Source of the DNA: Escherichia coli
GTDB taxonomy: Bacteria; Pseudomonadota; Gammaproteobacteria; Enterobacterales; Enterobacteriaceae
Assembly: GCF_044324785.1 (NCBI RefSeq)
Contig: NZ_CP172127.1
Reading direction: 5' to 3' (one strand)
Length of the DNA stretch: 64,000 bases
Shown here: piece by piece, positions 12,471 through 57,223 of the stretch
Position numbering within the stretch: position 1 is the first letter of the stretch
Layout of the letters: the number at the start of each line of letters is the position of its first letter
Notes under the pieces: model-generated
The model's database searches: none
The model's input: the letters and a program-made list of their open reading frames with translations, nothing else
What the model was told of the DNA's origin: nothing
Position numbers and translations under genes: made by a program

Positions 12471-12497
12471 GCCTCTCCACACGGAGAGGCGTTTTTA
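12471..12497. terminator. Hairpin plus T-run between convergent fbp and yjfF (bidirectional terminator)
   Basis: GCCTCTCC-ACAC-GGAGAGGC followed by TTTTTAT. Confidence 0.5.
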
Positions 12498-38329: not shown

Positions 38330-38968
38330 ATGCCCGGGCGCTTTGAACTAAAACCAACCCTGGAGAAAGTCTGGCACGCGCCGGACAATTTTCGCTTCAT
38401 GGACCCGCTGCCGCCGATGCATCGTCGGGGGATCATTATTGCCGCCATTGTATTGGTGGTCGGATTTCTGCTTCCATCTGATGATACGCCCAACGCGCCG
38501 GTGGTGACGCGTGAAGCGCAGTTAGATATTCAGTCGCAATCACAACCGCCGACAGAAGAACAGCTGCGGGCGCAATTAGTCACCCCACAAAATGATCCTG
38601 ATCAGGTGGCTCCGGTCGCTCCAGAACCTATACAGGAAGGCCAGCCAGAAGAGCAGCCGCAAACCACCCAAACGCAACCATTCCAGCCAGATAGCGGAAT
38701 TGATAATCAATGGCGCTCTTACCGTGTCGAACCCGGTAAAACGATGGCGCAGCTGTTCCGCGACCACGGACTGCCCGCTACCGATGTCTATGCAATGGCG
38801 CAGGTAGAAGGCGCGGGTAAGCCGCTGAGTAATTTGCAAAACGGGCAGATGGTGAAAATCCGCCAGAACGCCAGCGGCGTGGTGACGGGCTTAACCATTG
38901 ATACGGGGAATAATCAACAGGTCCTGTTTACCCGCCAGCCGGATGGCAGTTTTATTCGTGCGCGGTAG
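38330..38968 (+). CDS. ytfB: OapA/LysM-like cell-division-associated protein
   Basis: 212 aa from internal ATG ([23 protein letters not shown]...), membrane anchor, Pro/Gln-rich linker. Confidence 0.8.
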
Positions 38969-39599
38969 ATGAAGGATCAACCAAAAGCCAGCTAAGGAGC
39001 GTCTCTTTGATGACCTTACGTCTGGCTTCCAGTGCCTGGGGGGAAACCATACTGATATGATAAACTAGGCCAAGCGTATGCTGGTTGATCAAATAATATC
39101 CCCCAAGCGCAGCAATATTAATATTCACCTGCAATGGGTCGATATCTGGCTTAAAAATATTGTGTTTCTTCCCTTCATCCAATAAGGATTCCATTAACTG
39201 CAAGTGCGCATGGTTAATTTCTAAGAGACGCTGTGATTTTGCATAATGCACACCTTTACTTTGATTTTCACTATGCACAATTTTTAAAAACCAGGGGTTA
39301 GCAATATAATAATCCCATGTAAAATCAATAATTTTCTCAATGGCTTTTTGTGGCGGAAGATCTGAGAAATCAAGGGCCTTTTCTTTTTGTCGAATATCGT
39401 TCCAGGTATATTCCAGTACTTCAATAAATAAATTTTCTTTATTACCAAAGTGATGATAAACCGTCTGTTTACTACACCCCGCAGCCTTAACAATATTATC
39501 GACCCTGGCCCCTTCATAACCATATTCGGCAAATTCATTAACCGCGCATAACAGCAGCTTTTCCTTCAGGCTCTGTACGTTGCTGGTATCAAGATACAT
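38952..39599 (-). CDS. TetR/AcrR-family transcriptional regulator, divergent from the accessory operon (possibly the intact form of K-12 ytfA)
   Basis: 215 aa from ATG at 39599; N-terminal HTH ([23 protein letters not shown]); 3' end overlaps ytfB by about 17 nt. Confidence 0.8.
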
Positions 39600-39721
39600 A
39601 ACGCTTCCCCACGACCTCTTCAAGACAACTATCTTAACCCGATTAATTAGAAGCTCCAGTAAAAAGGATAAAAACTTGTACTTTCATCAAGTTATCAAAT
39701 GTCCTGTGATCACTATCGCAT

Positions 39722-39743
39722 ATCAACCAACCAGATGGTTGAT
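39722..39743. promoter_or_regulatory. Perfect inverted repeat ATCAACCA-N6-TGGTTGAT in divergent promoter region; candidate operator of the TetR regulator
   Basis: Verified against ORF-track translation of this region; a second repeat CTTGCG-N6-CGCAAG lies at about 39748-39765. Confidence 0.4.
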
Positions 39744-39809
39744 CTTTCTTGCGGCACGTCGCAAGCTAATTGTCACTTAGAAACAATATTCAAAAAAGAG
39801 AGCTATTGT

Positions 39810-40601
39810 ATGAAATCCACTCGTCCTGTTGCCGTGATTACCGGAGCCGCTCGTGGTATTGGAAAGGGCTGTGCGCTGGAGCTTGCTCGTGGCGGATTTA
39901 ACCTGCTGATTAACGATCGCCCCGATGATGACAGCGTAGAAAAATTACATGCCACGCAACAGGAATGTCTGGCAGAAGGTGTGGAAGTGATTTGCTTCCC
40001 TGCCGATGTCGGCGATCTCTCCTTGCATGAAGAGATGCTCGACGCGGCACAAAACCAGTGGGGACGTCTGGACTGCCTGCTCAACAACGCAGGCATTTCA
40101 GTGAAAAAACGCGGTGACCTTCTCGACCTCGAACCAGACAGCTTCGACCAAAATATTGCCATTAACACCCGCGCACCGTTCTTCCTCGCTCAGGCATTCA
40201 GTAAGCGCTTACTGGCACAGCCGAAACCGGAAGCAGAACTGCCGCACCGCTCGATTATTTTTGTCAGTTCCATCAACGCCATCATGCTGGCGATGAATCG
40301 CGGCGAATATACCATTGCCAAAACTGCCGTCTCTGCCGCTGCTCGTCTGTTTGCTGCTCGGCTTTGTAATGAACAAATTGGCGTTTATGAAGTGCGTCCT
40401 GGTCTCATCAAAACCGATATGACTATTCCGGCAACGGCCTATTACGACGAACTGATTGCCAAAGGTCTGGTGCCGTGGGGACGTTGGGGTTATCCGGCTG
40501 ATATTGCTTCCACTGTCCGCGCGATGGCGGAAGGTAAACTGATTTACACCTGTGGTCAGGCGGTTGCCATTGACGGCGGCTTAAGTATGCCGCGTTTCTG
40601 A
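39810..40601 (+). CDS. Short-chain dehydrogenase/reductase (classical SDR, FabG-like)
   Basis: 263 aa; TGAARGIGKG cofactor motif, NNAG, catalytic Y-x3-K (YTIAK); RBS AAAGAGAG upstream. Confidence 0.8.
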   Translation: MKSTRPVAVITGAARGIGKGCALELARGGFNLLINDRPDDDSVEKLHATQQECLAEGVEVICFPADVGDLSLHEEMLDAAQNQWGRLDCLLNNAGISVKKRGDLLDLEPDSFDQNIAINTRAPFFLAQAFSKRLLAQPKPEAELPHRSIIFVSSINAIMLAMNRGEYTIAKTAVSAAARLFAARLCNEQIGVYEVRPGLIKTDMTIPATAYYDELIAKGLVPWGRWGYPADIASTVRAMAEGKLIYTCGQAVAIDGGLSMPRF

Positions 40602-40610
40602 GGCTGAATC

Positions 40611-41453
40611 ATGAGAGATCTGTTACAACGCCCGGATTTATTCAGTATCAATACCGCGACACTGGGCTATAAAACGCCGCTTCCCGCCATTATTGATGCC
40701 TGCGCCGCACGCGGTATTGGCGCAATTGCCCCCTGGCGCAGGGAGTTGCAGGGTGAAGATCTCCAGCAAATCGCCCGCCAGCTTGCCGCCAGTAAGATGA
40801 ACGTTTCCGGTTTGTGCCGTAGCACTTACTACACCGCGCCGACACTGGCGGAACGCAAACTGGCGATTGATGATAACCGCCGGGCGCTGGACGACGCAGC
40901 GGTGCTTAACGCCGCCTGTTATATGCAGGTGGTTGGCGGGTTACCGCAGGGAACAAAAGATTTGTACGAAGCGCGGGAACAAGTAAAACAAGGGATTCGC
41001 CAGTTGCTGCCACATTCGAAAGATGTCGGCGTGCCAATTGCGCTGGAGCCGCTGCACCCGATGACTGCTGCCGACCGCTCTTGCCTGTGCACGTTACGTC
41101 AGGCGCTGGACTGGTGTGATGAACTCGATCCCGATGGTGAGTTTGGCCTCGGCGTAGCGGTAGATGTCTACCATGTCTGGTGGGACCCGGATCTCGCCAG
41201 CCAACTCCAGCGCGCCGGAAAACGCATCCTCGCGTTTCATGTTTCCGACTGGTTAGTACCAACCACCGATCTGGTCAATGACCGTGGAATGCCGGGAGAT
41301 GGCGTCATCAATATTCCGTCAATTCGTCGGCTGGTTGAAAACGCCGGATTTAATGGCGCTATTGAACTGGAAATATTCTCGCCGTACTGGTGGCAAAAAG
41401 ATATTAACAGCACGCTGGATATTAGCGTCGATCGCATCGCGCATTATTGCTAA
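40611..41453 (+). CDS. Xylose-isomerase-like TIM-barrel enzyme (sugar-phosphate isomerase/epimerase or dehydratase superfamily)
   Basis: 280 aa; conserved metal-ligand-like positions (LEPLHP, HVSDW, ELEIFS); starts 9 nt after SDR stop. Confidence 0.75.
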   Translation: MRDLLQRPDLFSINTATLGYKTPLPAIIDACAARGIGAIAPWRRELQGEDLQQIARQLAASKMNVSGLCRSTYYTAPTLAERKLAIDDNRRALDDAAVLNAACYMQVVGGLPQGTKDLYEAREQVKQGIRQLLPHSKDVGVPIALEPLHPMTAADRSCLCTLRQALDWCDELDPDGEFGLGVAVDVYHVWWDPDLASQLQRAGKRILAFHVSDWLVPTTDLVNDRGMPGDGVINIPSIRRLVENAGFNGAIELEIFSPYWWQKDINSTLDISVDRIAHYC

Positions 41454-41462
41454 GGAATGATT

Positions 41463-42239
41463 ATGAGTGACCAACCCGTTCTGTTCAGCAGAGCGGCGGC
41501 TTCCTGCCGTCTGACATTGAACCGTGAAGATAAATGTCATGCTATTAATGAAGAGATGATTGAATCTCTCGATCATTATTTAAATGAAATTGAAAACGAC
41601 ACCACATTACGATTAGTCGAATTAACGGCAACCGGCGATAAATTCTTTTGTGCGGGCGGCGATATTAAATCGTGGTCAGCCTATTCGCCATTAGATATGG
41701 GCAGAAAATGGATTAAACGCGGTAATGACGTTTTTAATCGCCTGCGCAACTTACCCCAATTAACCGTTGCAAATCTCAACGGTCATACCATCGGCGGTGG
41801 TATTGAACTTGCTTTGTGCTGCGATATTCGTATTGCCCGTCCCGGCGCGAAATTCTCTAACCCGGAAGTGATGCTCGGCATGGTGCCTGGCTGGATGGGC
41901 ATTGAACGTGTGCTTAATCAGGTCGGTCCGGTGGTCGGTCGCCAGATGCTGATGCTGGGTAAACGCCTGACGGCGCGGGAAGCTCAGGCGGCGAATTTAA
42001 TTGATGAAGTGGTAGAAAAAGAACAGGTGGAAAGCTGGATGGCGAACCAGTTAGCGCAGCTGGAAAAATGTGGTCCGGTGGCGCTCGCACATATCAAGCA
42101 ACTGATTCTGGCACTGGAAAATAAACATGCCGATTACCCGCACCAGCTACTGGCTGGATTAATGTCCGCCACTCAGGATTGCCAGCAGGCGACGCGCGCG
42201 TTTGCCGAAAAAAGTAGCGTGAGCTTCCACAATCAATAA
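41463..42239 (+). CDS. Enoyl-CoA hydratase/isomerase (crotonase fold)
   Basis: 258 aa; oxyanion-hole segments FCAGGDIKSW and NGHTIGGGIELALCCDIRIA; start taken at second ATG, 6 nt after AAGGA. Confidence 0.8.
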   Translation: MSDQPVLFSRAAASCRLTLNREDKCHAINEEMIESLDHYLNEIENDTTLRLVELTATGDKFFCAGGDIKSWSAYSPLDMGRKWIKRGNDVFNRLRNLPQLTVANLNGHTIGGGIELALCCDIRIARPGAKFSNPEVMLGMVPGWMGIERVLNQVGPVVGRQMLMLGKRLTAREAQAANLIDEVVEKEQVESWMANQLAQLEKCGPVALAHIKQLILALENKHADYPHQLLAGLMSATQDCQQATRAFAEKSSVSFHNQ

Positions 42240-42248
42240 GGAAATTGT

Positions 42249-43790
42249 ATGCGTAAGATAACAACCGCCGAGGCACTGGCGGCGCAAATTCAGGACGGCG
42301 CAACCATTGCCATTAGCGGTAACGGCGGCGGCATGGTGGAAGCTGACCATATTATGGCCGCCATTGAAGCGCGTTTCCTGCAAACCGGACACCCTCGCGA
42401 TCTGACATTGATCCACTCGCTGGGTATTGGCGATCGCGACAGCAAAGGCACTAACCGTTTTGCTCACGCCGAAATGCTCAAACGCATTATTGCCGGACAT
42501 TTTACCTGGTCGCCCAAGATGCAGGAACTGGTGAAAAGCAATGCTATTGAAGCCTACTGTTTCCCTGGTGGCGTGATTCAGGCGTTGCTACGGGAGATCG
42601 GTGCCGGACGTCCGGGGCTTTTTACCCACGTTGGGCTGGGATCGTTTGTTGATCCACGCAATGGCGGCGGTAAGTCGAATGAATGCACTACCGACGACCT
42701 GGTAGAACTGATTGAAATCGACGGTGAGACCAAACTTCGTTATCGCCCTTTCAAAGTGGATTACGCGATTTTGCGTGGCACTTATGCCGATCCACGAGGC
42801 AACGTTAGCCTCGAAGAAGAAGCGATTGATATGGATAGCTATTCGATGGCGCTGGCAGCACACAACAGCGGTGGCAAAGTGTTCGTACAGGTACGCGATG
42901 TGCTGGAAGCAGGTGCCATTGAACCACGCCGGGTTAAATTACCGGGGATTCTGGTTGATGGCATCGTTGAACACCGCGAACAGCCACAAACCTATCTTGG
43001 CAGTTACGACCTGACCATCAGCGGCCAACATCGCCGTCTGAGTTCTAACGACGCTATTGAGCTGGTTAGTCATCCGGTGCGTCGCCTGATTGCCCGTCGG
43101 GCAGCGCGGGAACTGGTGGCAGGCGCTTCAACCAACTTTGGCTTTGGTATTCCCGGCGGCATTCCAGGAGTAGCGCTGCGCGAAGGCGTGCCTTACCAAA
43201 GTTTATGGCTGAGCGTCGAGCAAGGCGTGCATAACGGTATGATGCTGGATGATGCGTTTTTCGGCTGCGCCCGCAACGCCGATGCCATTATTCCATCACT
43301 CGATCAATTTGAGTTCTACAGTGGTGGAGGGATCGATATCACCTTCCTCGGCATGGGAGAGATGGATCAGTACGGTAACGTCAACGTATCCCATCTCAAT
43401 GGCAATCTGATTGGCCCCGGCGGATTTCTCGAAATTGCGCAAAATGCCCGTAAAGTGGTGTTCTGCGGCACGTTCGACGCTAAAGGCAGCAAAATCGATA
43501 TAACGCCAGATGGCTTGCATATCGCCCAGTCAGGTCAAATCCCTAAACTGGTTACCCAGGTGGAAAAAATCACTTTTAGCGCCGCCTACGCACAGCAAAG
43601 TGGTCAGGAAGTGTTGTATATCACTGAGCGCGCAGTATTCCAGTTAACGGCAGAAGGCGTTGAATTAATTGAAATCGCGCCGGGTGTAGAGATTGAGCGC
43701 GACATTCTGCCGTTCATGGCTTTCCGTCCAATTATCAAGCACCCACGCCTGATGGAAAGTAGCCTGTTTACGCCGATGGAGGATGCATGA
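42249..43790 (+). CDS. Family-I CoA-transferase, fused alpha/beta subunits (YdiF / propionate-CoA-transferase-like)
   Basis: 513 aa; N-terminal ISGNGGG and later SGGGIDITFLGMGEMDQYGNVNVS segments typical of 3-oxoacid CoA-transferases. Confidence 0.75.
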   Translation: MRKITTAEALAAQIQDGATIAISGNGGGMVEADHIMAAIEARFLQTGHPRDLTLIHSLGIGDRDSKGTNRFAHAEMLKRIIAGHFTWSPKMQELVKSNAIEAYCFPGGVIQALLREIGAGRPGLFTHVGLGSFVDPRNGGGKSNECTTDDLVELIEIDGETKLRYRPFKVDYAILRGTYADPRGNVSLEEEAIDMDSYSMALAAHNSGGKVFVQVRDVLEAGAIEPRRVKLPGILVDGIVEHREQPQTYLGSYDLTISGQHRRLSSNDAIELVSHPVRRLIARRAARELVAGASTNFGFGIPGGIPGVALREGVPYQSLWLSVEQGVHNGMMLDDAFFGCARNADAIIPSLDQFEFYSGGGIDITFLGMGEMDQYGNVNVSHLNGNLIGPGGFLEIAQNARKVVFCGTFDAKGSKIDITPDGLHIAQSGQIPKLVTQVEKITFSAAYAQQSGQEVLYITERAVFQLTAEGVELIEIAPGVEIERDILPFMAFRPIIKHPRLMESSLFTPMEDA

Positions 43791-45859
43791 GTCAGCTTGA
43801 TGACACCATCCTTGATGCGCTGACGCACGTCACTTTCCCAAAGGGGTTTGTGTCAGCAGAGCCAACGTCAATTGTCACCGTTGAGGATGTTGATTACCCG
43901 ATCTGGCAAGTTGATGCGCTGGTCGTTGGTAGCGGCGCAGCAGGATTACGTGCGGCAGTTGAACTTAAACGCCGCCAGCAAAATGTGCTGATCGCCACCG
44001 CCGGGTTATATATGGGGACGTCGGCATGTTCTGGTTCCGATAAACAGACGTTGTTTACCGCCGCTACCGCGGGCAACGGCGACAACTTCGCCAAACTGGC
44101 AGAGGCACTTGCGAGCGGTGGGGCGATGGATCACGACACCGCTTATGTCGAAGCGGTAGGTTCTCTGCACACTCTTGGCGGGTTGCAATATCTTGGTCTG
44201 GAATTACCGGAAGATCGCTATGGCGCGATTCTTCGTTATCAAACCGACCATGACGAAGCCGGGCGTGCAACCTCGTGTGGGCCGCGTACCTCAAGGTTAA
44301 TGGTGAAAGTGCTGCTGGAAGAAGTACAGCGTCTTGCTATCCCAATGTTGACCAGTGCAACAGTGATTAAACTGCTGCATCAGCGTGACGAAAACGGCGA
44401 AGACCGCGTGGCGGGGGCTATCCTCGCGACCGGTCATCGCGCCCATAACCCATGGGGGCTGGCAATTGTGATTGCGCCCAATGTGGTACTGGCAACAGGA
44501 GGGCCTGGCGAGCTTTATCGCGACAGTGTGTACCCACACAAATGTTTCGGCTCGCTGGGTCTGGCGCTGGAGGAAGGTCTGACGCTAACGAATCTGACTG
44601 AAAGCCAGTTTGGTATAGGCACACCGCGCAGCACGTTTCCGTGGAATTTGTCCGGGACTTATGTACAGGTGATCCCATATATCTATTCCGTGGATGCTGA
44701 GGGTAACGAGTATAACTTCCTCGCGGATTACTATCGCACCACCCAGGAGCTGGCTTCAAACATTTTCCGTAAAGGCTATCAGTGGCCGTTCCACGCCACT
44801 CGGGTGATGGATTTTGGCTCCAGCTTGTTAGATATGGCAGTAGCGCAAGAGCAGCAATCAGGGCGTCAGGTATTTATGGATTTCAATCGCAATCCTGAAG
44901 CGGTGCCGGGTGACCTGCCCTTCTCATTAGATCGACTGGACGACGACGTTCGCGCGTATCTGGAAAATAACGACGCTCTGGCACCATCGCCCATCGAACG
45001 GCTGCAACGAATGAATCCGCTGTCTATCTCGCTGTATAAGATGCACGGTTACGATCTCACCACACAGCCATTGCAGTTTGCCATGAATAATCAGCATATG
45101 AATGGCGGCATTGAAGTCGATATCTGGGGACAAACATCTCTACCCGGTTGTTTTGCAGTGGGGGAAGTTGCTGGCACACACGGCGTCACCCGACCTGGCG
45201 GCGCGGCATTGAATGCCGGGCAGGTTTTTGCTGTTCGTCTGGCACGTTTTATTGGTTGCACGCAAAAGCGGAATATTGATGGAGATATAGCACAGCTGGC
45301 AGCTCCGGCACTGGCTTCTATAAGAGAGATCATTACTCAGGCGCACGATAACGGGACCGGGATGCCGTTGTCGGTTGTGAGAGAAAAAATTCAGGCACGA
45401 ATGTCTGACCATGCGGGATTTATTTGTCATGCCGATAAAGTCCGACGCGCCACTCGTGATGCCCTGCTATTGAACGAATTTGTCCAACGGCATGGATTGG
45501 CAATCAAACATGTGGGTGAAGTTTCCGAGCTGTTTATGTGGCGGCATATGGCGCTGACTTCTGCCGCGGTATTAACACAATTAACGCATTATATTGATGC
45601 TGGTGGCGGCAGTCGTGGGGCGCGGATGGTTATTGATCCACAAGGCAAATGCCTACCACAAACTCGTCGCGGCGTAAAAGAAGAATGGCGTTTTCGCTCT
45701 GAACTCGCTGAAGATAAAAATCACAAATTAACAATTCAATATTCGCAAGGTTCTTTTATTACCGAAGTAAAGTCTTTACGTATGCAACCGTGTATTAACG
45801 GTATTTACTTTGAAAAAAACTGGCCAGACTTTTTAAAGGGAGACATTTACACACAATAA
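43787..45859 (+). CDS. FAD-binding oxidoreductase of the fumarate-reductase/succinate-dehydrogenase flavoprotein superfamily
   Basis: 690 aa; dinucleotide fold VVGSGAAGLRAA, later GEVAGTHGVTRPGGAALNAGQVFAVRLARF; ATGA overlap with upstream gene. Confidence 0.75.
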   Translation: MSQLDDTILDALTHVTFPKGFVSAEPTSIVTVEDVDYPIWQVDALVVGSGAAGLRAAVELKRRQQNVLIATAGLYMGTSACSGSDKQTLFTAATAGNGDNFAKLAEALASGGAMDHDTAYVEAVGSLHTLGGLQYLGLELPEDRYGAILRYQTDHDEAGRATSCGPRTSRLMVKVLLEEVQRLAIPMLTSATVIKLLHQRDENGEDRVAGAILATGHRAHNPWGLAIVIAPNVVLATGGPGELYRDSVYPHKCFGSLGLALEEGLTLTNLTESQFGIGTPRSTFPWNLSGTYVQVIPYIYSVDAEGNEYNFLADYYRTTQELASNIFRKGYQWPFHATRVMDFGSSLLDMAVAQEQQSGRQVFMDFNRNPEAVPGDLPFSLDRLDDDVRAYLENNDALAPSPIERLQRMNPLSISLYKMHGYDLTTQPLQFAMNNQHMNGGIEVDIWGQTSLPGCFAVGEVAGTHGVTRPGGAALNAGQVFAVRLARFIGCTQKRNIDGDIAQLAAPALASIREIITQAHDNGTGMPLSVVREKIQARMSDHAGFICHADKVRRATRDALLLNEFVQRHGLAIKHVGEVSELFMWRHMALTSAAVLTQLTHYIDAGGGSRGARMVIDPQGKCLPQTRRGVKEEWRFRSELAEDKNHKLTIQYSQGSFITEVKSLRMQPCINGIYFEKNWPDFLKGDIYTQ

Positions 45860-45951
45860 TTTTCAATATTTCCTCTGTACCTGATTTTTATTGCCTATTA
45901 CATGGAAATACCAACAACCAGGGTTTATTAATATAATTAAAAGGTTTAAAA

Positions 45952-47229
45952 ATGAATAAAATAAAGAATTATCGATGGCATATGATTGCCCTCGTATGCT
46001 TTATCACTGTAATCAATTATCTGGACAGAACGGCGTTAGGTATTGCGGCTCCAACGATTATGGAGACAACCGGAATAACTAAAGAGCAATATTCATGGAT
46101 TGTCAGTGCATTCCAGTTGGCCTATACATTAGGGCAACCGGTAATGGGCTTCTTTATTGATACCGTGGGTCTGAAGTTAAGTTTTGCGATATGTGCCGCA
46201 ATTTGGGGCCTGGCGACAATGGGCCATGCACTAACCGGAACGTGGTCTGGTCTGGCATTTATGCGCGCCCTGATGGGTTTCAGCGAAGCGTCGGCAATTC
46301 CGGCGGGTGTAAAAACCGCATCAACATGGTTCCCGGCAAAAGAGCGTGGCGTGGCGACAGGTGTTTTCAATATGGGCACCTCACTCGGCGCGATGCTTGC
46401 TCCACCGTTGATTGCCTGGTGCATTATGTTTCATAGCTGGCAATTTGCGTTTATTGTTTCAGGTAGCCTTGCTTTGCTCGCGGCTTTATTTTGGTTCTTT
46501 TGTTATAAAGATCCGAAAGATGCCAAACGCCTTTCTGATGAAGAGCGCCACTATATTGAATCAGGGCAAGAACAGCATCTTAAAACAGATAAGAAAGAAA
46601 AAACGTCAATCAAGCATATCCTCAGCCAACGTAATTTCTGGGGGATTGGCATCGCGCGTTTTCTCGCAGACCCGGCATGGGGAACCATTAACTTCTGGGT
46701 GCCGATTTTCTTCGTCGAAACGCTGCATTTTAGCCTGAAAGAAATTGCCATGTTCGTCTGGCTGCCTTTCCTGCTGGGCGATCTCGGCTGTTTAGCCAGT
46801 GGTTTTGTCGCGAAGTTCTTCCACGATCGCGGCGTGAGTTTAATTAACTCACGAAGAATTACCTTCACTATTGCAGCCGTCATTATGATGACGATTGGCC
46901 TGGTGAGTATTGTCGAAAATCCCTACATTGCCGTATTACTGATTAGTATTGGCGCGTTCTCGCATCAATGTCTTTCTACTGTAGCAGCAACTCTGGGTGG
47001 CGATCTGTTCAAAAAAGACGAAGTAGCTACCGCAGTGGGTATGGCAGGAGCCTGTGCGTGGAGCGGTCAGTTGATTTTCAACCTGTTCATCGGGGCATTC
47101 GTTCACATTATCGGCTTCGCGCCGTTCTTTATTGCCCTGGCTTTCTTTGACATTATTGGTGCTATTGCGTTGTGGACGCTTATCAAAGTTAAAGATGAAG
47201 AACCGCAAGTACAGCTAGCTACCCATTAA
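45952..47229 (+). CDS. MFS transporter, anion:cation symporter (ACS) family, ExuT/DgoT-like
   Basis: 425 aa; N-terminus NYRWHMIALVCFITVINYLDRTALGIAAPTIME and FPAKERG loop resemble hexuronate/aldonate transporters. Confidence 0.85.
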   Translation: MNKIKNYRWHMIALVCFITVINYLDRTALGIAAPTIMETTGITKEQYSWIVSAFQLAYTLGQPVMGFFIDTVGLKLSFAICAAIWGLATMGHALTGTWSGLAFMRALMGFSEASAIPAGVKTASTWFPAKERGVATGVFNMGTSLGAMLAPPLIAWCIMFHSWQFAFIVSGSLALLAALFWFFCYKDPKDAKRLSDEERHYIESGQEQHLKTDKKEKTSIKHILSQRNFWGIGIARFLADPAWGTINFWVPIFFVETLHFSLKEIAMFVWLPFLLGDLGCLASGFVAKFFHDRGVSLINSRRITFTIAAVIMMTIGLVSIVENPYIAVLLISIGAFSHQCLSTVAATLGGDLFKKDEVATAVGMAGACAWSGQLIFNLFIGAFVHIIGFAPFFIALAFFDIIGAIALWTLIKVKDEEPQVQLATH

Positions 47230-47242
47230 TTATTTTAAATAA

Positions 47243-47272
47243 AAACGCTATAATTGAGGTTATGGCGTTTTT
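47243..47272 (+). terminator. Probable rho-independent terminator after the MFS transporter gene
   Basis: AAACGCTATAA...TTATGGCGTTT stem (one G-U pair) followed by T-run. Confidence 0.4.
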
Positions 47273-47499
47273 AAAGAAGCTTGAGTTATCGAACCTCGCT
47301 TACCAACGCGTTGTCAATCATATCCCCCCTCCCTGCTGCATCGTTATATCCACAATGAGCGATTTTTGATATTAATATCTTTCACCATCCGCTATTTTCA
47401 CTACTTCAGAAAACAAACTTATTTTTATTAATATCGATTCTTTATTCTGTAAACATTCAGCTGAGATATTTATAAAAACATTAAACAGGCAACGATACA

Positions 47500-48294
47500 A
47501 TGACATTACCAACCACTATTTATTCATTTCCTGCATATTCACCCCGTTTTTCGTCCACCGACAAACCAGTAAAATTAAAATTTCATCAATACGCACGCGC
47601 TACATTACTTTCAAATCGTGGAAGAGATCATAATTGCGATGGCAGACATACTGTTGAGATCCACAAACTAGATCTCTCAGACTGGCAAGCATTCAATAAA
47701 CTAGCGATGGCGTGTAATGCTTACGATGGAATAACAATGAATGGTGATAATTCTTTTGGATGGAACCATGAAGCTACATTAGATAATATTCACGCCCAGA
47801 AATACAATAAAGCTTACGCGGGTGCGAGGTTAACCGCAGAACTGAAATATTTATTGCAAGATGTCGAATCCTTCGAACCCAACAGTAAATACACAATACA
47901 CGAGGTTGTTTTGGGTCCAGGTTATGGTACTCCAGACTATACCGGCCAAACGATAGGATACGTTGTAACCCTTCCTGCCCAAATGCCTAATTGCTGGTCA
48001 TCTGAACTACCAACAATCGATCTTTATATCGACCAACTTCGCACTGTTACAGGCGTTTCTAATGCCCTCGGATTCATCATTGCTGCATTGCTAAACGCGT
48101 ATTCTGATTTACCCCATGATTTGAAAATTGGTCTGCGTTCCTTATCAAGTTCAGCAGCAATCTACTCGGGTTTGGGTTTCGAGCGAGTGCCGCAGGGCCG
48201 AGACATAAGGTGCGATCATATGCATCTAACGCCAGCAAACCATCCTGAATTATGGACACAAGAGAATGGTGAATGGATCTACTTGCGAAACTAA
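47500..48294 (+). CDS. yjfZ: Uncharacterised DUF2686-like protein YjfZ (AT-rich gene)
   Basis: 264 aa, no motifs recognised, preceded by 270-bp AT-rich spacer; position next to rplI matches yjfZ. Confidence 0.7.
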   Translation: MTLPTTIYSFPAYSPRFSSTDKPVKLKFHQYARATLLSNRGRDHNCDGRHTVEIHKLDLSDWQAFNKLAMACNAYDGITMNGDNSFGWNHEATLDNIHAQKYNKAYAGARLTAELKYLLQDVESFEPNSKYTIHEVVLGPGYGTPDYTGQTIGYVVTLPAQMPNCWSSELPTIDLYIDQLRTVTGVSNALGFIIAALLNAYSDLPHDLKIGLRSLSSSAAIYSGLGFERVPQGRDIRCDHMHLTPANHPELWTQENGEWIYLRN

Positions 48295-49408: not shown

Positions 49409-49822
<414 letters not shown>

Positions 49823-50130
49823 TTATTCAGCCTCCTGTCTGGGTCAGCCGAATCCCGGGGAGGCAAGGAACGTGTTAAAGGTCGGCTGAAAAATGACGCG
49901 TTATAGTACTGACATACCCCGCTAAACTCAAGGCCAGCCGACAAATAAATCTCATCTTTCACCAAATCGTACTAACACACTGATTTGAAGTTCATCACAC
50001 ATCATCATGGTGTTTTTTTGAACAACTGCATCAGAAATGGTCACCATCAACTTCTTTATCATTGATTAAAATTAAATCAGAAGATCATCACAAAGGAGAG
50101 CACACAAAGTCAGCCGTCGAGGAGGTATCT

Positions 50131-50406
50131 ATGTTCAGTCGTGTTTTAGCCCTTCTGGCTGTGCTTTTGCTAAGTGCAAATACATGGGCAGCCATTGAAA
50201 TTAATAACCACCAGGCCAGAAATATGGACGATGTGCAAAGCTTAGGCGTGATTTATATCAACCATAACTTCGCCACTGAAAGTGAAGCACGTCAGGCATT
50301 AAATGAAGAGACAGATGCGCAGGGCGCAACGTACTACCACGTGATTCTGATGCGGGAACCGGGGAGTAACGGCAATATGCACGCCAGCGCGGATATTTAT
50401 CGCTAG
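50131..50406 (+). CDS. yjfY: Small periplasmic DUF1471 (YdgH/BhsA/McbA-family) protein
   Basis: 91 aa from internal ATG after GAGGAG RBS; signal peptide; C-terminal Y-x-hydrophobic...IYR motif. Confidence 0.8.
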   Translation: MFSRVLALLAVLLLSANTWAAIEINNHQARNMDDVQSLGVIYINHNFATESEARQALNEETDAQGATYYHVILMREPGSNGNMHASADIYR

Positions 50407-50446
50407 CACCAGGTATAACCAACGAAACATTGCCATAGTTTGCTTT

Positions 50447-50471
50447 GCCCCCTTCGCAGGGGGCTTTTTTT
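50447..50471 (+). terminator. Rho-independent terminator after yjfY
   Basis: GCCCCC-TTCGCA-GGGGGC followed by TTTTTTT. Confidence 0.55.
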
Positions 50472-50534
50472 GAAAAACGGCTGCGGAATTAGACCAGTTA
50501 TCTCCCGAGGAAGGAAATTTCCGCAGCGCGTGTT

Positions 50535-51221
50535 TTACTTCTGCCCGTAATAAGCGTTGGGACCATGCTTACGCATGAAGTGTTTATTCATCAGGAAGCT
50601 GTCGATGTGATTCAGTTGTGGGTTAATGCCGCGGGCAATCCACGCCATTTTCGCCACTTCTTCCATCACCACCGCATTATGCACCGCATCGTGAGCATCT
50701 TTCCCCCAGGCGAACGGCCCGTGCTGATACACCACAATCCCCGGTGTATGCAGCGGCTCGGCGTTGCCCAGCGTTTCGATAATTACTTTGCCGGTGTTCA
50801 GTTCGTACTCGCCCTGCACCTCTTCTTCGCTTAATCCGCGCGTACACGGGATATCGCCAAAGAAGTAGTCGGCGTGCGTGGTGCCTAACGCCGGGATCGC
50901 CAGCCCCGCCTGCGCCCATGCGGTAGCATGAGTGGAGTGGGTATGGACAATGCCACCAAGCGACGGATAACGACGGTAGAGTTCGAGATGCGTCGCAGTA
51001 TCGGAAGACGGGCGATACGCCCCTTCCACCACCTTGCCGCTCATATCGACCACCACCATATCGCCTGCTTTCATGGTTTCGTAGGCGACGCCGCTGGGCT
51101 TGATCACCACCAGCCCGCGTTCGCGGTCGATGGCGCTGACGTTGCCCCAGGTAAAGGTCACCAGCCCGTAACGCGGCAGATCCATGTTGGCTTCAAATAC
51201 CTGCTGTTTCAGCTTTTGCAT
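50535..51221 (-). CDS. ulaF: L-ribulose-5-phosphate 4-epimerase (ascorbate utilisation)
   Basis: 228 aa from internal ATG ([21 protein letters not shown]...), class II aldolase/adducin fold. Confidence 0.9.
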
Positions 51222-52075
51222 TATGCCGCCTCCACCATGCCAGCTTTGGCCATGCGCGCTTTCACCCAATCACGCGCTTTCGCCACTTCCGCCGCCGGGT
51301 CTTCCGCCGTTTCGCTCCACATCTCAATCAGGTACGGCCCGCAATAGCCACTCTGTTTGAGCGTTTCGAAGCAACGTTCGAAATCCACTACGCCTTCGCC
51401 AAACGGCACATTTTTGAAGACGCCTGGTTTGGTGTCTTTCACATGCACCGCGACGATATGCCCAATTCCGGCCTGCAATTCCATCTGCACGTCGTTGTCC
51501 CACGCCGACAGGTTGCCGATATCCGGATAGAGCTGGAACCACGGGTTGTTGAGATAGTGCGCATAGCCCAGCGCCTTGCTGATGGAGTTCATCAATGGAT
51601 AATCCATGATCTCCATTGCCAGCGTCACCTGCGCGCGGCTTGCCATCTCAACGCTCTCTTTCAGGCCGTCACGGAAACGACGACGCGTTTCGTTATTGGC
51701 TTCCTGATAGTAAACGTCATAGCCCGCCAGTTGGATCACGCGAATGCCAACGTCCTGGGCGAACTGGATAGCTTTACGCATAATCTCCAGCCCCTGCGCC
51801 CGCACCGCGTCATCTTCGCTACCCAGCGGGAAACGACGATGAGCAGAAAGGCACATAGACGGTACACGCACGCCGGTTTCAACAATCGCATTCACCAGCG
51901 CCAGACGCTGCTCGCGGCTCCAGTCGAGGCGCGACAGGCGATCGTCAGTTTCATCTACCGACATCTCGACAAAATCGAAGCCTAACGTTTTTGCCAGTTG
52001 CAGCCGTTCCAGCCAGCACTCCCCGGCGGGGAGCGCTTTTTCATAGATGCCAAGCGGGATTTGTTTGGACAACAT
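51221..52075 (-). CDS. ulaE: L-ribulose-5-phosphate 3-epimerase
   Basis: 284 aa xylose-isomerase-like TIM barrel. Confidence 0.9.
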
Positions 52076-52084
52076 ATCCGCTCC

Positions 52085-52735
52085 TTAGCCCCACAGTTCG
52101 GCGATGGAACGTTTGAACTGACGCGCAGCTTCAACCGGAGAAGCGGCATCACGGATACTGCGACCAGCGATAAACACATGAATCGGAATGCCTTTGAACA
52201 GCGGCAGATCTTCCAGCGCTAGGCCACCGGTGACGGTCACTTTAAAGCCCATATCGGACAGACGTTTGATCGCGGTAATGTCAGCTTCGCCCCACGCCAC
52301 GCCTGCGGCCTGCGCGTCACGGCTGCGGTGATAAACCACCTGCTGAATACCTGCGTCGCGCCACTGTTGCGCCTGTTCCCAGGTCCAGTAGCCAGTCAGT
52401 TCGATCTGCACGTCGCCGTTAAACTCTTTTGCCACGTCCAGCGCGCCCTTGGCGGTGTTGATATCCGCACAGCAAATTACGGTCACCCAGTCAGCGTTGG
52501 CTTCGAAGCACATACGAGAAAGGATTTTGCCCGCATCGGCAATTTTGGCGTCTGCCAGTACGATTTTGTGCGGGTAAAGCGCTTTCAGGTCACGAACTGC
52601 ACGCACGCCTTCGCCTACGCACAGAATGGTGCCCACTTCGATAATGTCGACTTCTTCGGCAATCAGGCGAGTGGTTTCGTAGGCGCTATCCATAGTCTGG
52701 TTGTCCAGCGCGACTTGCAACATTGGTAATGACAT
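52085..52735 (-). CDS. ulaD: 3-keto-L-gulonate-6-phosphate decarboxylase
   Basis: 216 aa from internal ATG ([20 protein letters not shown]...), OMP-decarboxylase-like. Confidence 0.9.
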
Positions 52736-52748
52736 GTTCAATTCCTTC

Positions 52749-53213
52749 TTAAGCTGCCGCGTTGGTGCGGTCAATGAGATCCAGTACTTCCTGCTCGGTA
52801 CGGCAGGCACGTAAACGGTCGAAATTCTCTTCATCTTCAAACAGATTGACGATCTGCATGATGCCCACTTCCTGGTGAGTGTTGGCATCGACCGCCGCCA
52901 TGGTGATGAGGATATCCACCGGATCGTTATCTTCGTGGTTGAACTCCAGCGGCTTTTTCAGCGTCACCAGCGCAAAACCGGTTTTCTTAACGCCCTCTTC
53001 CGGGCGACCGTGCGGCATTGCCAGGCCTGGTGCGAGCACAAAGTACGGACCGTGCTGTTCAACCGCATCCAGAATCGCCTGGTAGTAACGCGGCTCGACA
53101 ACATCCGCCGCCACCAGCAGGTCAACGCCGATTTTCACTGCGTCCTGCCATGTCTCAGCTTCAGCCTGCAGGCGGATGGATTTATTCTCCGCCAGCGAAT
53201 CACGTAATTTCAT
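52749..53213 (-). CDS. ulaC: PTS ascorbate-specific EIIA component
   Basis: 154 aa PTS EIIA-2 fold. Confidence 0.9.
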
Positions 53214-53222
53214 GGCGCGTCC

Positions 53223-53528
53223 TTACTTCACGTCCTGCGGGAAATGCTCTTTGATCACTTCCAGCAGTTTCGGGCCAAAGTCGGCAGGAGAGAGCATGTT
53301 GCGCACACCAACCACGTATTTGTTGCCGGTCACGGTGATTTCGCCCGCAATGTGCGTAGAAGCGATGATGATATCCGCGCCGCTCAACTCGCTTTTGTAT
53401 TCGCCAACCGCGCAGCTGTTTACCGTGTGGTCAATGTTTGATTGGGTTAAAAACTGGTCCACTTTCATCTTCATGATCATGGAACTGCCTTGTCCGTTGC
53501 CACACACAGCCAGAATACGTACGGTCAT
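53223..53528 (-). CDS. ulaB: PTS ascorbate-specific EIIB component
   Basis: 101 aa from internal ATG ([20 protein letters not shown]...), active-site Cys. Confidence 0.9.
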
Positions 53529-53543
53529 AATCAAAACTCCTTA

Positions 53544-55295
<1,752 letters not shown>

Positions 55296-56360
55296 ATGAG
55301 TAAAGTGAAAAGTATCACCCGAGAATCCTGGATCCTGAGCACTTTCCCGGAGTGGGGTAGCTGGCTGAATGAAGAAATTGAACAAGAGCAGGTCGCCCCT
55401 GGCACATTTGCGATGTGGTGGCTAGGCTGCACCGGGATCTGGCTGAAATCAGAAGGTGGCACCAACGTTTGCGTTGATTTCTGGTGCGGCACTGGCAAAC
55501 AAAGTCACGGTAACCCGTTAATGAAACAGGGTCACCAGATGCAGCGCATGGCTGGCGTGAAAAAACTGCAGCCAAACCTGCGCACCACCCCGTTTGTTCT
55601 TGATCCGTTTGCGATTCGCCAGATCGACGCGGTACTGGCGACTCACGATCACAACGATCATATCGACGTTAACGTCGCTGCTGCCGTGATGCAGAACTGT
55701 GCTGATGACGTACCGTTCATTGGACCGAAAACCTGCGTTGATTTGTGGATTGGCTGGGGCGTACCGAAAGAGCGTTGCATCGTGGTCAAACCTGGCGATG
55801 TTGTAAAAGTGAAAGACATTGAAATTCATGCGCTTGACGCTTTCGACCGTACTGCACTGATCACCCTGCCTGCCGATCAAAAAGCGGCTGGCGTACTGCC
55901 AGATGGCATGGACGATCGCGCAGTAAACTACCTGTTCAAAACCCCTGGCGGTTCCCTGTATCACAGTGGCGATTCCCACTACTCTAACTATTATGCGAAG
56001 CACGGTAACGAACATCAGATCGATGTGGCGTTAGGATCGTATGGTGAGAACCCGCGCGGTATTACCGACAAAATGACCAGCGCCGATATGCTGCGTATGG
56101 GTGAAGCCCTGAATGCGAAAGTGGTTATCCCGTTCCACCACGACATCTGGTCAAACTTCCAGGCCGATCCGCAAGAAATCCGCGTGCTGTGGGAGATGAA
56201 AAAAGATCGTCTGAAGTATGGCTTCAAGCCGTTTATCTGGCAGGTGGGCGGCAAATTTACCTGGCCGTTGGATAAAGACAACTTCGAGTACCACTATCCG
56301 CGTGGTTTCGATGATTGCTTCACTATTGAACCGGATCTGCCGTTCAAGTCATTCCTGTAA
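55296..56360 (+). CDS. ulaG: L-ascorbate-6-phosphate lactonase (metallo-beta-lactamase fold)
   Basis: 354 aa from internal ATG ([20 protein letters not shown]...), HDHNDH-type metal motif. Confidence 0.9.
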
Positions 56361-56383
56361 TCTGTCGTTTATACCGGATAGCG

Positions 56384-56414
56384 TGGAGTAGTTCGCGCTA
56401 TCCGGCGTAGTATT
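56384..56414. repeat. Palindromic hairpin after ulaG (REP-like or terminator)
   Basis: CCGGATAGCG...CGCTATCCGG inverted repeat. Confidence 0.35.
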
Positions 56415-56467
56415 TCCTGGCTATTTCAAATATCATCTAAAAAAATCAAATTTTATCGGAATAGCTC

Positions 56468-57223
56468 ATGACTGAAGCACAAAGACATCAAATCCTCCTG
56501 GAAATGCTCGCACAATTGGGCTTTGTGACCGTTGAGAAAGTCGTTGAGCGTCTGGGAATTTCGCCTGCCACTGCGCGACGCGATATCAATAAACTTGACG
56601 AAAGCGGCAAACTGAAAAAAGTGCGCAATGGCGCAGAAGCTATTACCCAACAGCGCCCACGCTGGACGCCGATGAATCTGCATCAGGCGCAGAATCACGA
56701 TGAAAAAGTACGTATTGCTAAAGCGGCCTCGCAGCTGGTTAATCCGGGCGAAAGCGTAGTCATCAACTGCGGCTCCACCGCGTTTCTGCTTGGGCGGGAA
56801 ATGTGTGGCAAGCCAGTGCAAATCATCACTAATTATCTACCGCTGGCAAATTACCTGATCGATCAGGAGCATGACAGCGTGATCATTATGGGCGGACAGT
56901 ACAACAAAAGTCAGTCCATCACTTTAAGCCCGCAAGGCAGCGAAAACAGTCTCTATGCCGGGCACTGGATGTTTACCAGCGGCAAAGGGCTGACAGCAGA
57001 AGGGTTGTATAAAACCGATATGTTGACGGCAATGGCAGAGCAGAAGATGCTGAGCGTGGTAGGGAAATTGGTGGTACTGGTTGATAGCAGTAAGATTGGC
57101 GAACGCGCGGGAATGCTTTTTAGCCGTGCCGATCAAATCGATATGCTGATCACCGGCAAAAATGCTAACCCGGAAATCCTGCAACAACTGGAAGCGCAAG
57201 GGGTCAGCATTCTGCGTGTTTAA
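56468..57223 (+). CDS. ulaR: DeoR-family repressor of the ula regulon
   Basis: 251 aa, N-terminal HTH, C-terminal sugar-phosphate-binding domain. Confidence 0.9.

Follow-up and report, generated by a model that had tools for sequence, protein, structure and literature searches.

A seven-gene Escherichia coli locus joining a CoA-transferase, a crotonase and an SdhA/FrdA-like flavoprotein: a possible route for hexuronate-class sugar acids

Organization of the locus

A stretch of 64,000 nucleotides of the Escherichia coli chromosome (RefSeq assembly GCF_044324785.1, contig NZ_CP172127.1), below called the window, carries five consecutive enzyme genes for a short-chain dehydrogenase/reductase (SDR), a triosephosphate isomerase (TIM) barrel enzyme, a crotonase, a CoA-transferase and a flavoprotein. 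The window is otherwise ordinary Escherichia chromosome, running from treR through yjfJ, and the compact gene set is located in it between ytfB and yjfZ (Table 1). The original prediction had placed all five enzyme families in one operon at 39810-45859, and this was confirmed by the open reading frames (ORFs), present and intact on the plus strand, by the family matches and by the tight spacing: the intergenic gaps are 9, 9, 9 and -4 nt, the last one resulting from the overlap of the flavoprotein start with the CoA-transferase stop (ATGA), and the genes are therefore packed as an operon. The same coding sequences (CDSs) are annotated by RefSeq in E. coli CE10 and N3. The limitation of the unit to five enzymes was too narrow, since the divergent TetR gene and the downstream transporter gene of the major facilitator superfamily (MFS) also belong to it, making a seven-gene unit at 38952-47229. 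The TetR gene was recognized from its ORF and translation and has a RefSeq CDS of the same length in strains CE10 and N3, while its Pfam domains come from orthologs.

Table 1. Features of the locus (positions in the window, except for the last row, given in the coordinates of another E. coli locus)
Feature	Position	Strand	Assigned by / remark
TetR/AcrR-family regulator, 215 aa	38952-39599	-	TetR_N + TetR_C_29
Divergent control region, 210 bp	39600-39809	none	between TetR and SDR genes
Classical SDR oxidoreductase, 263 aa	39810-40601	+	NCBIfam PRK12745
Xylose-isomerase-like TIM barrel, 280 aa	40611-41453	+	PF01261
Crotonase-fold enoyl-CoA hydratase/dehydratase, 258 aa	41463-42239 (ORF opens 41457)	+	NCBIfam models
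Fused family-I (YdiF/Pct-type) CoA-transferase, 513 aa	42249-43790	+	YdiF structure 2AHU
SdhA/FrdA-like flavoprotein, 690 aa	43787-45859	+	PF00890
MFS transporter, 425 aa, ExuT paralog	45952-47229	+	identity to ExuT
Segment absent from E. coli K-12, ~8 kb	39355-47330	none	blastn boundaries
TRAP DctQMP module, alternative E. coli form	locus L006, 12103-14946		

Enzymes of the operon

The CoA-transferase matched the YdiF structure 2AHU over residues 6-508 (E 5e-115) and the Staphylococcus FadX model with 385 bits, and PF01144 was found on its orthologs. The Glu of its SVEQG motif, a position assigned by motif, is invariant in an alignment of seven sequences with 41-75% identity; this catalytic residue and the fused alpha/beta architecture identify the protein as a predicted family-I transferase (YdiF/Pct/SCOT). 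The crotonase matched the NCBIfam enoyl-CoA hydratase models with ~150 bits and retains both catalytic Glu (GGGIE-LALCCD and NPE-VMLG, equivalent to E144 and E164 of rat enoyl-CoA hydratase; assigned by motif in the translation), as would be expected from a true enzyme of the hydratase/dehydratase type. The natural reading of a Pct/YdiF-type transferase travelling with a crotonase that keeps both Glu is that the substrate is handled as a CoA thioester, in agreement with the original prediction.

The SDR was recognized by the NCBIfam model PRK12745 (420 bits), its other similarities being of a generic SDR nature, and its translation contains the motifs of the classical SDR type: TGAARGIGKG (TGxxxGIG), NNAG and S...YTIAK. 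Its match to KduD is of ~115 bits (NCBIfam), with 29% identity to KduD of K-12, which is the generic SDR level; its best structures, 4ONE and 4DA9, have no assigned function. The TIM barrel protein belongs to PF01261 (1.7e-37) and is close to the Sinorhizobium meliloti SMc04130 structures 3JU2/3QC0 (E 7e-85) and also to 7VPF, again with no assigned function. All its weak NCBIfam matches are isomerases or epimerases, namely IolO, hydroxypyruvate isomerase, fructoselysine 3-epimerase and 2-oxo-tetronate isomerase, suggesting that it is probably a metal-dependent keto/aldo isomerase or epimerase. A role as 3-dehydroshikimate or inosose dehydratase was downgraded, because it matched only isomerase/epimerase models and neither of those dehydratase models. 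A KduI homolog was found in none of the fetched loci, and the SDR and TIM barrel pair does not qualify as KduD and KduI.

The flavoprotein belongs to PF00890 (FAD_binding_2; 1.5e-27). Its AlphaFold model has a mean confidence (pLDDT) of 91.6, and the top Foldseek matches were FrdA and SDHA, with target-normalised TM scores of up to 0.81; all four domains of E. coli FrdA/SDHA were matched at 17-18% identity. Thus, the original assignment to the fumarate reductase type stands for the fold; it does not extend to the fumarate catalytic residues. In comparison with FrdA and NadB of K-12, H44 and H232 are replaced by G and R287 by S, all three being invariant in the family, and the equivalents of FrdA Glu245 and Arg248 are not conserved. 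On the other hand, FrdA H355 (as H437) and R390 (as R469), which form a carboxylate clamp near the flavin, are kept, and the motifs GSDKQT, KGYQWPF and GGGSRG are invariant in the family and peculiar to it. The protein has no signal peptide, and an FrdB-like/Fe-S partner gene was not found in the operon. Its identity as a fumarate reductase, succinate dehydrogenase or L-aspartate oxidase was rejected, the catalytic His232 and Arg287 and the His44 of covalent FAD attachment being missing. The family, which includes at least 420 clusters at 50% identity (E<1e-30), represents its own branch of the SdhA/FrdA superfamily and has no characterised member.

Conserved unit and exchangeable modules

The five enzyme families occur together in five settings that differ in gene order or place: on the Escherichia/Klebsiella/Salmonella chromosome, on a Salmonella IncFII plasmid contig, in Leminorella richardii and on two types of low-G+C contigs, one from human-gut metagenomes and the other from a metagenome-assembled genome (MAG). 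The grouping is therefore not due to chance, and the view of the five genes as one conserved functional unit was borne out. In the low-G+C contigs the order is TIM-crotonase-transferase / TetR / SDR-flavoprotein-SDR-TRAP, where TRAP denotes a tripartite ATP-independent periplasmic transporter, and in comparison with the E. coli proteins the transferase is 72% identical, the crotonase and the TIM barrel are 57-58% and the flavoprotein is 45% identical. Two genes upstream of the copy at locus L106 had no Pfam or NCBIfam match.

For a comparison of gene context, 80 genome loci were fetched with the flavoprotein alignment; several other representatives of the family come from contigs too short to be informative on their neighbours. 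The closest non-Escherichia relatives among them retain TetR, SDR, TIM barrel and flavoprotein and have no CoA genes: the order is TetR / SDR-TIM-flavoprotein-MFS in Brenneria and TetR / SDR-Gfo/Idh/MocA-TIM-MFS-flavoprotein in Pseudescherichia, Phytobacter and Mangrovibacter. Bacteria of the Planctomycetes-Verrucomicrobia-Chlamydiae group have TIM-Gfo-SDR-flavoprotein, also without CoA-transferase and crotonase. The constant core of the system is, consequently, SDR plus TIM barrel (plus flavoprotein), and the CoA enzymes, whose genes always adjoin each other in the relatives, are a recurrent exchangeable module. This reverses the original view of the TIM barrel as an addition to a beta-oxidation core.

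A sister cluster in metagenome contigs with 60-69% G+C (L094, L095) has the order TetR / CoA-transferase / acyl-CoA dehydrogenase-SDR-DUF993-TIM(-Gfo/Idh/MocA), its TIM barrel and CoA-transferase being 56 and 53% identical to those of the window. Flavoprotein and crotonase are replaced there by DUF993, which matches only the structure 4DNH with no assigned function, and by an acyl-CoA dehydrogenase with acryloyl-CoA reductase AcrC as its best match and with 68-70% identity to dehydrogenases adjoining the flavoprotein in other loci. S. meliloti SMc04130 (3JU2) is suspected to lie in a cluster of this sister type.

In about 25 of the 80 loci, the flavoprotein gene is accompanied by one for an SDR or a Gfo/Idh/MocA dehydrogenase and adjoins 2-keto-3-deoxygluconate (KDG) kinase and/or Eda. 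Homologs of UxaC, UxuA, UxuB, UxaA and KduI were absent from all 80 loci, and therefore the flavoprotein and one NAD(P) dehydrogenase must supply the kinase substrate. The alpha-proteobacterial loci (L022-L070; Rhizobium, Devosia, Rhodobacteraceae) share a conserved cluster of a CUT1-type ATP-binding cassette (ABC) transporter, an aldehyde dehydrogenase, two GMC oxidoreductases, Dabb, LacI, a levoglucosan-dehydrogenase-like Gfo protein, the flavoprotein, KDG kinase and Eda; in a Devosia MAG (L037), the two GMC genes have given way to a crotonase and a CoA-transferase. In Phycisphaerae and other anaerobes the set consists of an old yellow enzyme (OYE, also as OYE-GltD), SDR, Eda, BNR_4, flavoprotein and KDG kinase, with genes for OYE or OYE-GltD flanking the flavoprotein gene in MAGs of Phycisphaerae, Aminicenantes and Bacteroidia. 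One protein of 1084 aa (P0150) is a natural fusion of an OYE-like part (~31-440) with the flavoprotein (444-1030; 41% identity to the E. coli protein). Fusion of OYE with FAD_binding_2 is the architecture of soluble NADH:enoate reductases, which implies that the flavin is fed with electrons.

Distribution and loss in K-12

The locus, referred to as an island in the original prediction, is not rare. Of 5426 complete E. coli genomes, 3121 (~58%), the type strain among them, contain the genes for the CoA-transferase and the flavoprotein, and the operon occupies the same position between ytfB and rplI in Klebsiella (K. oxytoca), Salmonella and E. albertii. The form present in the window, with the MFS gene followed by yjfZ (45952-48294), was found in ~1654 complete E. 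coli genomes, while in ~1446 E. coli genomes the flavoprotein gene is followed by TRAP genes DctQ-DctM-DctP instead of the MFS gene, and the operon runs into rplI without yjfZ. Hence, this is one operon with two alternative uptake modules within a single species.

In a blastn comparison of the K-12 yjfZ-ytfB interval with the window, the homology ended at 39354 and restarted at 47331, so that the K-12 deletion spans from the inside of the TetR gene to just beyond the MFS gene; the K-12 pseudogene ytfA is the 3' remnant of the TetR gene. Recent acquisition as an island was rejected in view of the synteny in Klebsiella and Salmonella and of the deletion scar in K-12. The locus is an old one, with repeated loss and some mobility, the latter evident from the plasmid and Leminorella copies. 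A Salmonella enterica contig with IncFII repA (L087) has a paralogous full operon, from TetR through MFS, with 48-80% protein identity, followed by a fldB-like flavodoxin gene and, further on, by Tn3 resolvase and transposase genes; in Leminorella richardii the operon is present at a different locus. On a Shigella boydii-type chromosome (L086) the operon has decayed through insertion sequences (IS): TetR, SDR and a truncated TIM-barrel gene of 207 aa remain, several IS (DDE_3) copies follow the TIM-barrel stump and the neighbouring gene order is rearranged.

Only ~3 kb past the operon (39810-47229), the window contains the ula operon for L-ascorbate (ulaF to ulaR, ~49800-56500), another system for 3-keto-L-gulonate/sugar acids that has a xylose-isomerase-like TIM barrel of its own, UlaE; the two operons are also close in Klebsiella and Salmonella. 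The gene yjfF for a galactofuranose ABC permease (window equivalent 12495-13489) is annotated as frameshifted in N3, the closest complete genome.

Transporters and substrate class

The MFS transporter of the window is 47% identical to ExuT of K-12 (425 bits) and 24-28% identical to GudP, DgoT and LgoT (120-152 bits). Being closer to ExuT than to the other sugar-acid transporters, it may be placed in the ExuT type of the ACS family. The MFS proteins of Klebsiella, Salmonella and the plasmid are only ~50% identical to that of the window, yet 47-48% identical to ExuT.

In the TRAP module of the other E. coli form, the best structural relatives of the binding protein are 4OVR, whose ligand we take to be galacturonate, 4X8R, 4N8Y and 4N15, all from the group of hexuronate-binding TRAP receptors (cluster of Vetting et al. 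2015), the identity being only ~40% in this comparison. In the gut contig, the TRAP receptor encoded after SDR-flavoprotein-SDR matched Apre_1383 (4N91) with 296 bits and ~52% identity as counted from the alignment, and its N-Q, R, R and N motif blocks are aligned with those of Apre_1383, as judged by motif inspection. Among these structures, 4N91 binds D-glucuronate, 4MHF glucuronate/galacturonate, 4N8Y galacturonate and 4X8R glucuronate, and 4N15 was the template on which the glucuronate binder STM3169 was modelled (PMC7660916, PMC11668362). The same gut contig has a KdgF-like cupin gene (107 aa; 5FPX/5FPZ, E 1e-21) beside TIM-crotonase-transferase and divergent from the TIM gene. KdgF linearises 4,5-unsaturated uronates. 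Taken together, the three uptake systems, two ExuT paralogs and the TRAP transporter, point to a hexuronate-like acid as the most likely substrate. A substrate class of this kind, suggested by the transporters, goes beyond the original prediction.

Control region

A CRP-like site (TGTGATCACTATCGCA) is located at 39705-39720 in the control region, and an inverted-repeat search revealed a perfect palindrome, ATCAACCA-N6-TGGTTGAT, at 39722-39743. The palindrome core forms a conserved block (AACCAACnAGATGGTTGATC, 39725-39744) overlapping a TTGATC -35-like hexamer. This 20-mer is unique in the window (0.03 matches expected) and invariant or nearly so in six chromosomal copies from Escherichia, E. 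albertii, Klebsiella and Salmonella, while the flanks diverge. The pattern GTGA-N6-TC(A/G)CA is also conserved in the six chromosomal copies, with GTGA-N6-TCACA in Klebsiella and Salmonella; as the CRP-like pattern alone is not rare in the window (1.14 matches expected), the weight of the site comes from its position and conservation. The plasmid copy has kept the right half-site and most of the palindrome.

The palindrome is probably the operator of the TetR protein, with which its overlap with the -35 hexamer agrees, and a CRP site is a plausible prediction; a TetR repressor and cAMP-CRP probably control the six-gene transcript. By inspection, no FNR-type site was seen in the control region, and this, together with the conserved CRP-like site, favours inducible carbon catabolism over the purely anaerobic electron sink that the original prediction had also envisaged. 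A terminator scan flagged the palindrome at 39722-39743, upstream of the SDR start, as a terminator-like hairpin with a T-rich run, which could in principle also have a function in the RNA, provided that the transcript begins upstream of the hairpin.

Proposed pathway

We favour, with somewhat less than even confidence, the explanation that the operon is inducible and serves the catabolism of a sugar acid of the hexuronate class, partly handled as a CoA thioester, as a carbon source. Its mechanism as a whole is inferred from protein families, gene context and transporter similarity. The substrate would be taken up by the ExuT-like symporter or, in the alternative E. coli form, by the TRAP transporter with its glucuronate/galacturonate-type binding protein, after which the YdiF/Pct-type transferase would load CoA onto the uronate carboxyl, making the C5-H acidic, which would explain the need for CoA. 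Since uronyl-CoA is a 2,3-dihydroxyacyl-CoA, a canonical crotonase would remove its alpha proton (C5-H) and beta hydroxyl (4-OH, or a 4-O substituent), producing 4,5-unsaturated uronyl-CoA with the same 4,5-ene as made by polysaccharide lyases. The transferase would pass the CoA to the next substrate molecule and the ene would open to 4-deoxy-5-keto-uronate (DKI); the TIM barrel enzyme would isomerise the aldehyde/2-OH end in a KduI-like role, the SDR would reduce the product to KDG in a KduD-like role, and chromosomal kdgK and eda would lead KDG into central metabolism. Four of the five enzymes would thereby be given a role.

The step of the flavoprotein is the least certain in this pathway. 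It may act on the C4=C5 enoate or enoyl-CoA, either as a reductase or as a reduced-flavin-dependent hydratase linearising the ene by hydration of the enol ether. In the loci with only flavoprotein, dehydrogenase, kinase and aldolase, the stoichiometry favours a redox-neutral step from uronate or unsaturated uronate, while the OYE and flavodoxin partners would fit the reductase and the hydratase alike. Because the stereochemistry at C4 and C5 would be erased, the pathway could admit uronates that UxaC cannot use, and L-iduronate, mannuronate/guluronate or 4-O-methyl-glucuronate could be its substrates. In its most specific version, this would be the first CoA-dependent uronate 4,5-dehydratase route, the transferase and crotonase performing in the cell the task of the extracellular polysaccharide lyases, with the flavoprotein family representing a new reduced-flavin-dependent enzyme that processes (hydrates, linearises or otherwise converts) the 4,5-unsaturated uronate; together, they would make further uronates available to E. 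coli and many other bacteria; taken as a whole, this version is unlikely in our estimation.

Several points weigh against the favoured explanation. Brenneria and Pseudescherichia, which have the closest SDR and TIM barrel, use an MFS transporter of the aromatic-acid (PcaK) type and not of the ExuT type. The KduI-like and KduD-like roles are analogies and not homologies, given the 29% identity of the SDR to KduD and a TIM barrel unrelated to the cupin KduI. The exchange for an AcrC-like dehydrogenase and DUF993 in the sister cluster seems closer to a reduction of enoyl-CoA than to a simple dehydration. If the crotonase and the transferase already produce DKI, the flavoprotein has no necessary redox role, and the gut contig holds both a KdgF-like cupin and the flavoprotein. 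A precedent for uronyl-CoA was not found in the searched literature. Finally, E. coli has other routes from glucuronate, galacturonate and DKI to KDG, and the selective benefit therefore hinges on some other substrate.

Alternative explanations

A reductive CoA-cycling electron sink of the carnitine/acrylate type, with the CoA ester dehydrated by the crotonase, the enoyl-CoA reduced by the flavoprotein and the deoxygenated acid released or metabolised, is an unlikely alternative, albeit one that would account for the Pct/YdiF-type transferase, for the pairing and fusion of the flavoprotein family with OYE-like NAD(P)H modules, for the flavodoxin following the plasmid copy and for the variant clusters with AcrC-like acyl-CoA dehydrogenase and EtfAB. 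Soluble FrdA-like flavoproteins are, in addition, typically enoate reductases (Shewanella, Vibrio, Klebsiella). In contrast, the chromosomal operon has no electron-donor gene, the FrdA proton donor Arg287 and His232 are missing, and the TIM barrel and the SDR would be left without a role; the CRP-like site and the lack of an FNR-type site on inspection also argue against it. Furthermore, members of the family are often encountered in aerobic Rhizobium and Rhodobacteraceae, where they adjoin KDG kinase and Eda, indicating carbon assimilation.

A keto-isomerisation or epimerisation of an aldonate or uronate would suit a core of SDR, TIM barrel and flavoprotein that stays invariant whether CoA enzymes accompany it or not. 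Here, the flavoprotein, working in the manner of L-aspartate oxidase, would oxidise an alpha-hydroxy acid, for instance L-gulonate to 2-keto-L-gulonate, or a uronate at C5; the TIM barrel would shift the keto group by the logic of OtnI/IolO and the SDR would reduce it, the product being a stereoisomer that the standard pathways accept and the CoA module a side branch. The weak TIM-barrel matches to IolO, hydroxypyruvate isomerase and 2-oxo-tetronate isomerase are in line with this, as are the retained NadB-like His/Arg carboxylate clamp and a GhrB-like D-2-hydroxyacid dehydrogenase adjoining the flavoprotein in Coraliomargarita, a planctomycete and an Armatimonadetes MAG. However, the related loci with KDG kinase and Eda lack an accompanying dehydratase, which would leave an epimerised aldonate in them without a path to KDG, the OYE fusion suggests that electrons enter the flavin and do not leave it, and the tightly linked transferase-flavoprotein pair and the crotonase would stay unexplained. 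We regard this possibility as quite unlikely.

A similarly low probability is given to a beta-oxidation-like route for the CoA ester of a deoxy- or hydroxy-acid, with the flavoprotein as acyl-CoA dehydrogenase and the SDR as 3-hydroxyacyl-CoA dehydrogenase. The absence of a thiolase or lyase from all five arrangements means that a beta-oxidation cycle, which the original prediction had seen as the core of the operon, is not encoded, and neither the operon nor the four other arrangements contain an acyl-CoA dehydrogenase fold. Moreover, CoA enzymes are missing from most loci of the flavoprotein family, two loci (L013, L065) contain both an acyl-CoA dehydrogenase and the flavoprotein, and the transporters point to fully hydroxylated uronates. 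Against these observations stand the resemblance of the enzyme set to a transferase, dehydrogenase, hydratase and 3-hydroxyacyl-CoA dehydrogenase, the related clusters with a true acyl-CoA dehydrogenase in the place of the flavoprotein, and the precedent for sugar-acid CoA esters in the deoxyribonate catabolism of Klebsiella michiganensis, the genes of which, nevertheless, belong to other families (CoA synthetase, thiolase, glycerate kinase; PMC6365646).

Hydroaromatic acids (quinate, shikimate) would be processed by the SDR/Gfo protein and a TIM-barrel dehydratase acting on ring hydroxyls, the flavoprotein reducing a cyclohexene carboxylate and the CoA steps proceeding as from shikimate to cyclohexanecarboxyl-CoA. 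Consistent with such substrates are the PcaK-like aromatic-acid MFS of Brenneria and the Pseudescherichia group, the matches of the linked acyl-CoA dehydrogenases to cyclohexanecarboxyl-CoA dehydrogenases (309 bits), the position of ydiF in K-12, beside ydiB and aroD, and the fact that quinate and shikimate are carbocyclic look-alikes of pyranuronates that could fit uronate-type binding proteins. With ExuT paralogy, glucuronate-type binding motifs and a KdgF-like cupin pointing to uronates, KDG kinase and Eda adjoining family members, and the TIM barrel matching isomerase/epimerase models and not those of 3-dehydroshikimate or inosose dehydratases, such a pathway appears very unlikely.

Significance and comparison with known systems

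The operon is carried by more than half of the sequenced E. coli, by strains of the Klebsiella oxytoca group, by many Salmonella, by a plasmid and by other gut bacteria; its absence from K-12 has kept it out of reach of the classical work on hexuronate genetics. A host- or diet-derived uronate beyond the Ashwell pathway, if this is the substrate, could make the operon a determinant of the niches of individual strains in the gut or the urinary tract. The proposed pathway, if true, would add sugar-acid CoA thioesters to carbohydrate biochemistry and provide a first function for a large orphan branch of SdhA/FrdA and for 3JU2, 4DA9 and 4DNH (the last in the sister cluster).

No characterised pathway matching the operon was found: the NCBIfam names are generic, the closest structures are structural-genomics entries and searches of the full-text literature yielded nothing on it, so that, as originally predicted, homology and literature searches placed it in no characterised E. 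coli pathway. The only enterobacterial route for sugar acids via CoA esters found in the literature searched is the deoxyribonate pathway of K. michiganensis, a sugar-acid catabolism proposed to proceed via acyl-CoA and clustered with MFS transporters, which consists of a CoA synthetase, a beta-hydroxyacyl-CoA dehydrogenase, a thiolase and a glycerate kinase and includes no crotonase, flavoprotein or TIM-barrel gene (Price et al. 2019, PMC6365646). Identity of the operon with this pathway was rejected, the gene families being entirely different (PMC6365646).

With the pathways of carnitine (CaiB/CaiD/CaiA) and acrylate (Pct, lactoyl-CoA dehydratase, AcrABC) the operon would share, respectively, the recycling of CoA between product and substrate with a crotonase-type dehydration of a hydroxyacyl-CoA, and the Pct/YdiF transferase family, with an AcrC-like dehydrogenase and Etf in related clusters. 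In contrast to these pathways, where the redox enzyme has the acyl-CoA dehydrogenase fold and there is no counterpart to the SDR or TIM barrel, its redox enzyme has the SdhA/FrdA fold, its proposed substrate is a polyhydroxylated sugar acid and no FNR-type control was seen. The flavoprotein itself has the four-domain FrdA fold, the His/Arg clamp and the pairing or fusion with OYE in common with SdhA/FrdA/NadB and the soluble NADH:enoate reductases (fumarate, acrylate, cinnamate, urocanate), and differs from them in the loss of the covalent-FAD His, H232 and R287, in the lack of an FrdB partner and signal peptide and in its own invariant motifs. A mechanistic analogy, and only that, may exist with 2-haloacrylate hydratase, said to have been described by Mowafy and colleagues in 2010, a flavoprotein which reportedly depends on a reducing system and yet performs a reduced-FAD-dependent, redox-neutral hydration at the alpha carbon of an alpha-substituted acrylate, a motif shared by a 4,5-unsaturated uronate.

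The Ashwell hexuronate system (ExuT, UxaC, UxuB/UxuA, UxaB/UxaA, KdgK, Eda) shares with the operon an ExuT paralog, the likely substrate class, KDG as the likely end product and, probably, control by CRP plus a repressor. The operon, however, has no homolog of the isomerase, the mannonate/altronate oxidoreductases or the dehydratases, its regulator is of the TetR type and not of the GntR type of ExuR/UxuR, and nothing in the Ashwell system corresponds to its CoA-transferase, crotonase and SdhA-like flavoprotein. With the KdgF-KduI-KduD pathway for pectin, alginate and glycosaminoglycans it would have the proposed intermediates in common (4,5-ene, DKI, 3-deoxy-D-glycero-2,5-hexodiulosonate (DKII) and KDG), and a KdgF homolog is present beside the gut-contig copy; in that pathway the 4,5-ene is released by a polysaccharide lyase, whereas the route proposed here would make it intracellularly from a saturated monomer via its CoA ester. 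As far as can be judged from its genes, the operon resembles a hexuronate/unsaturated-uronate pathway located outside of both the Ashwell and the KduI-KduD systems, with the ExuT-like transporter as the only homolog in common.

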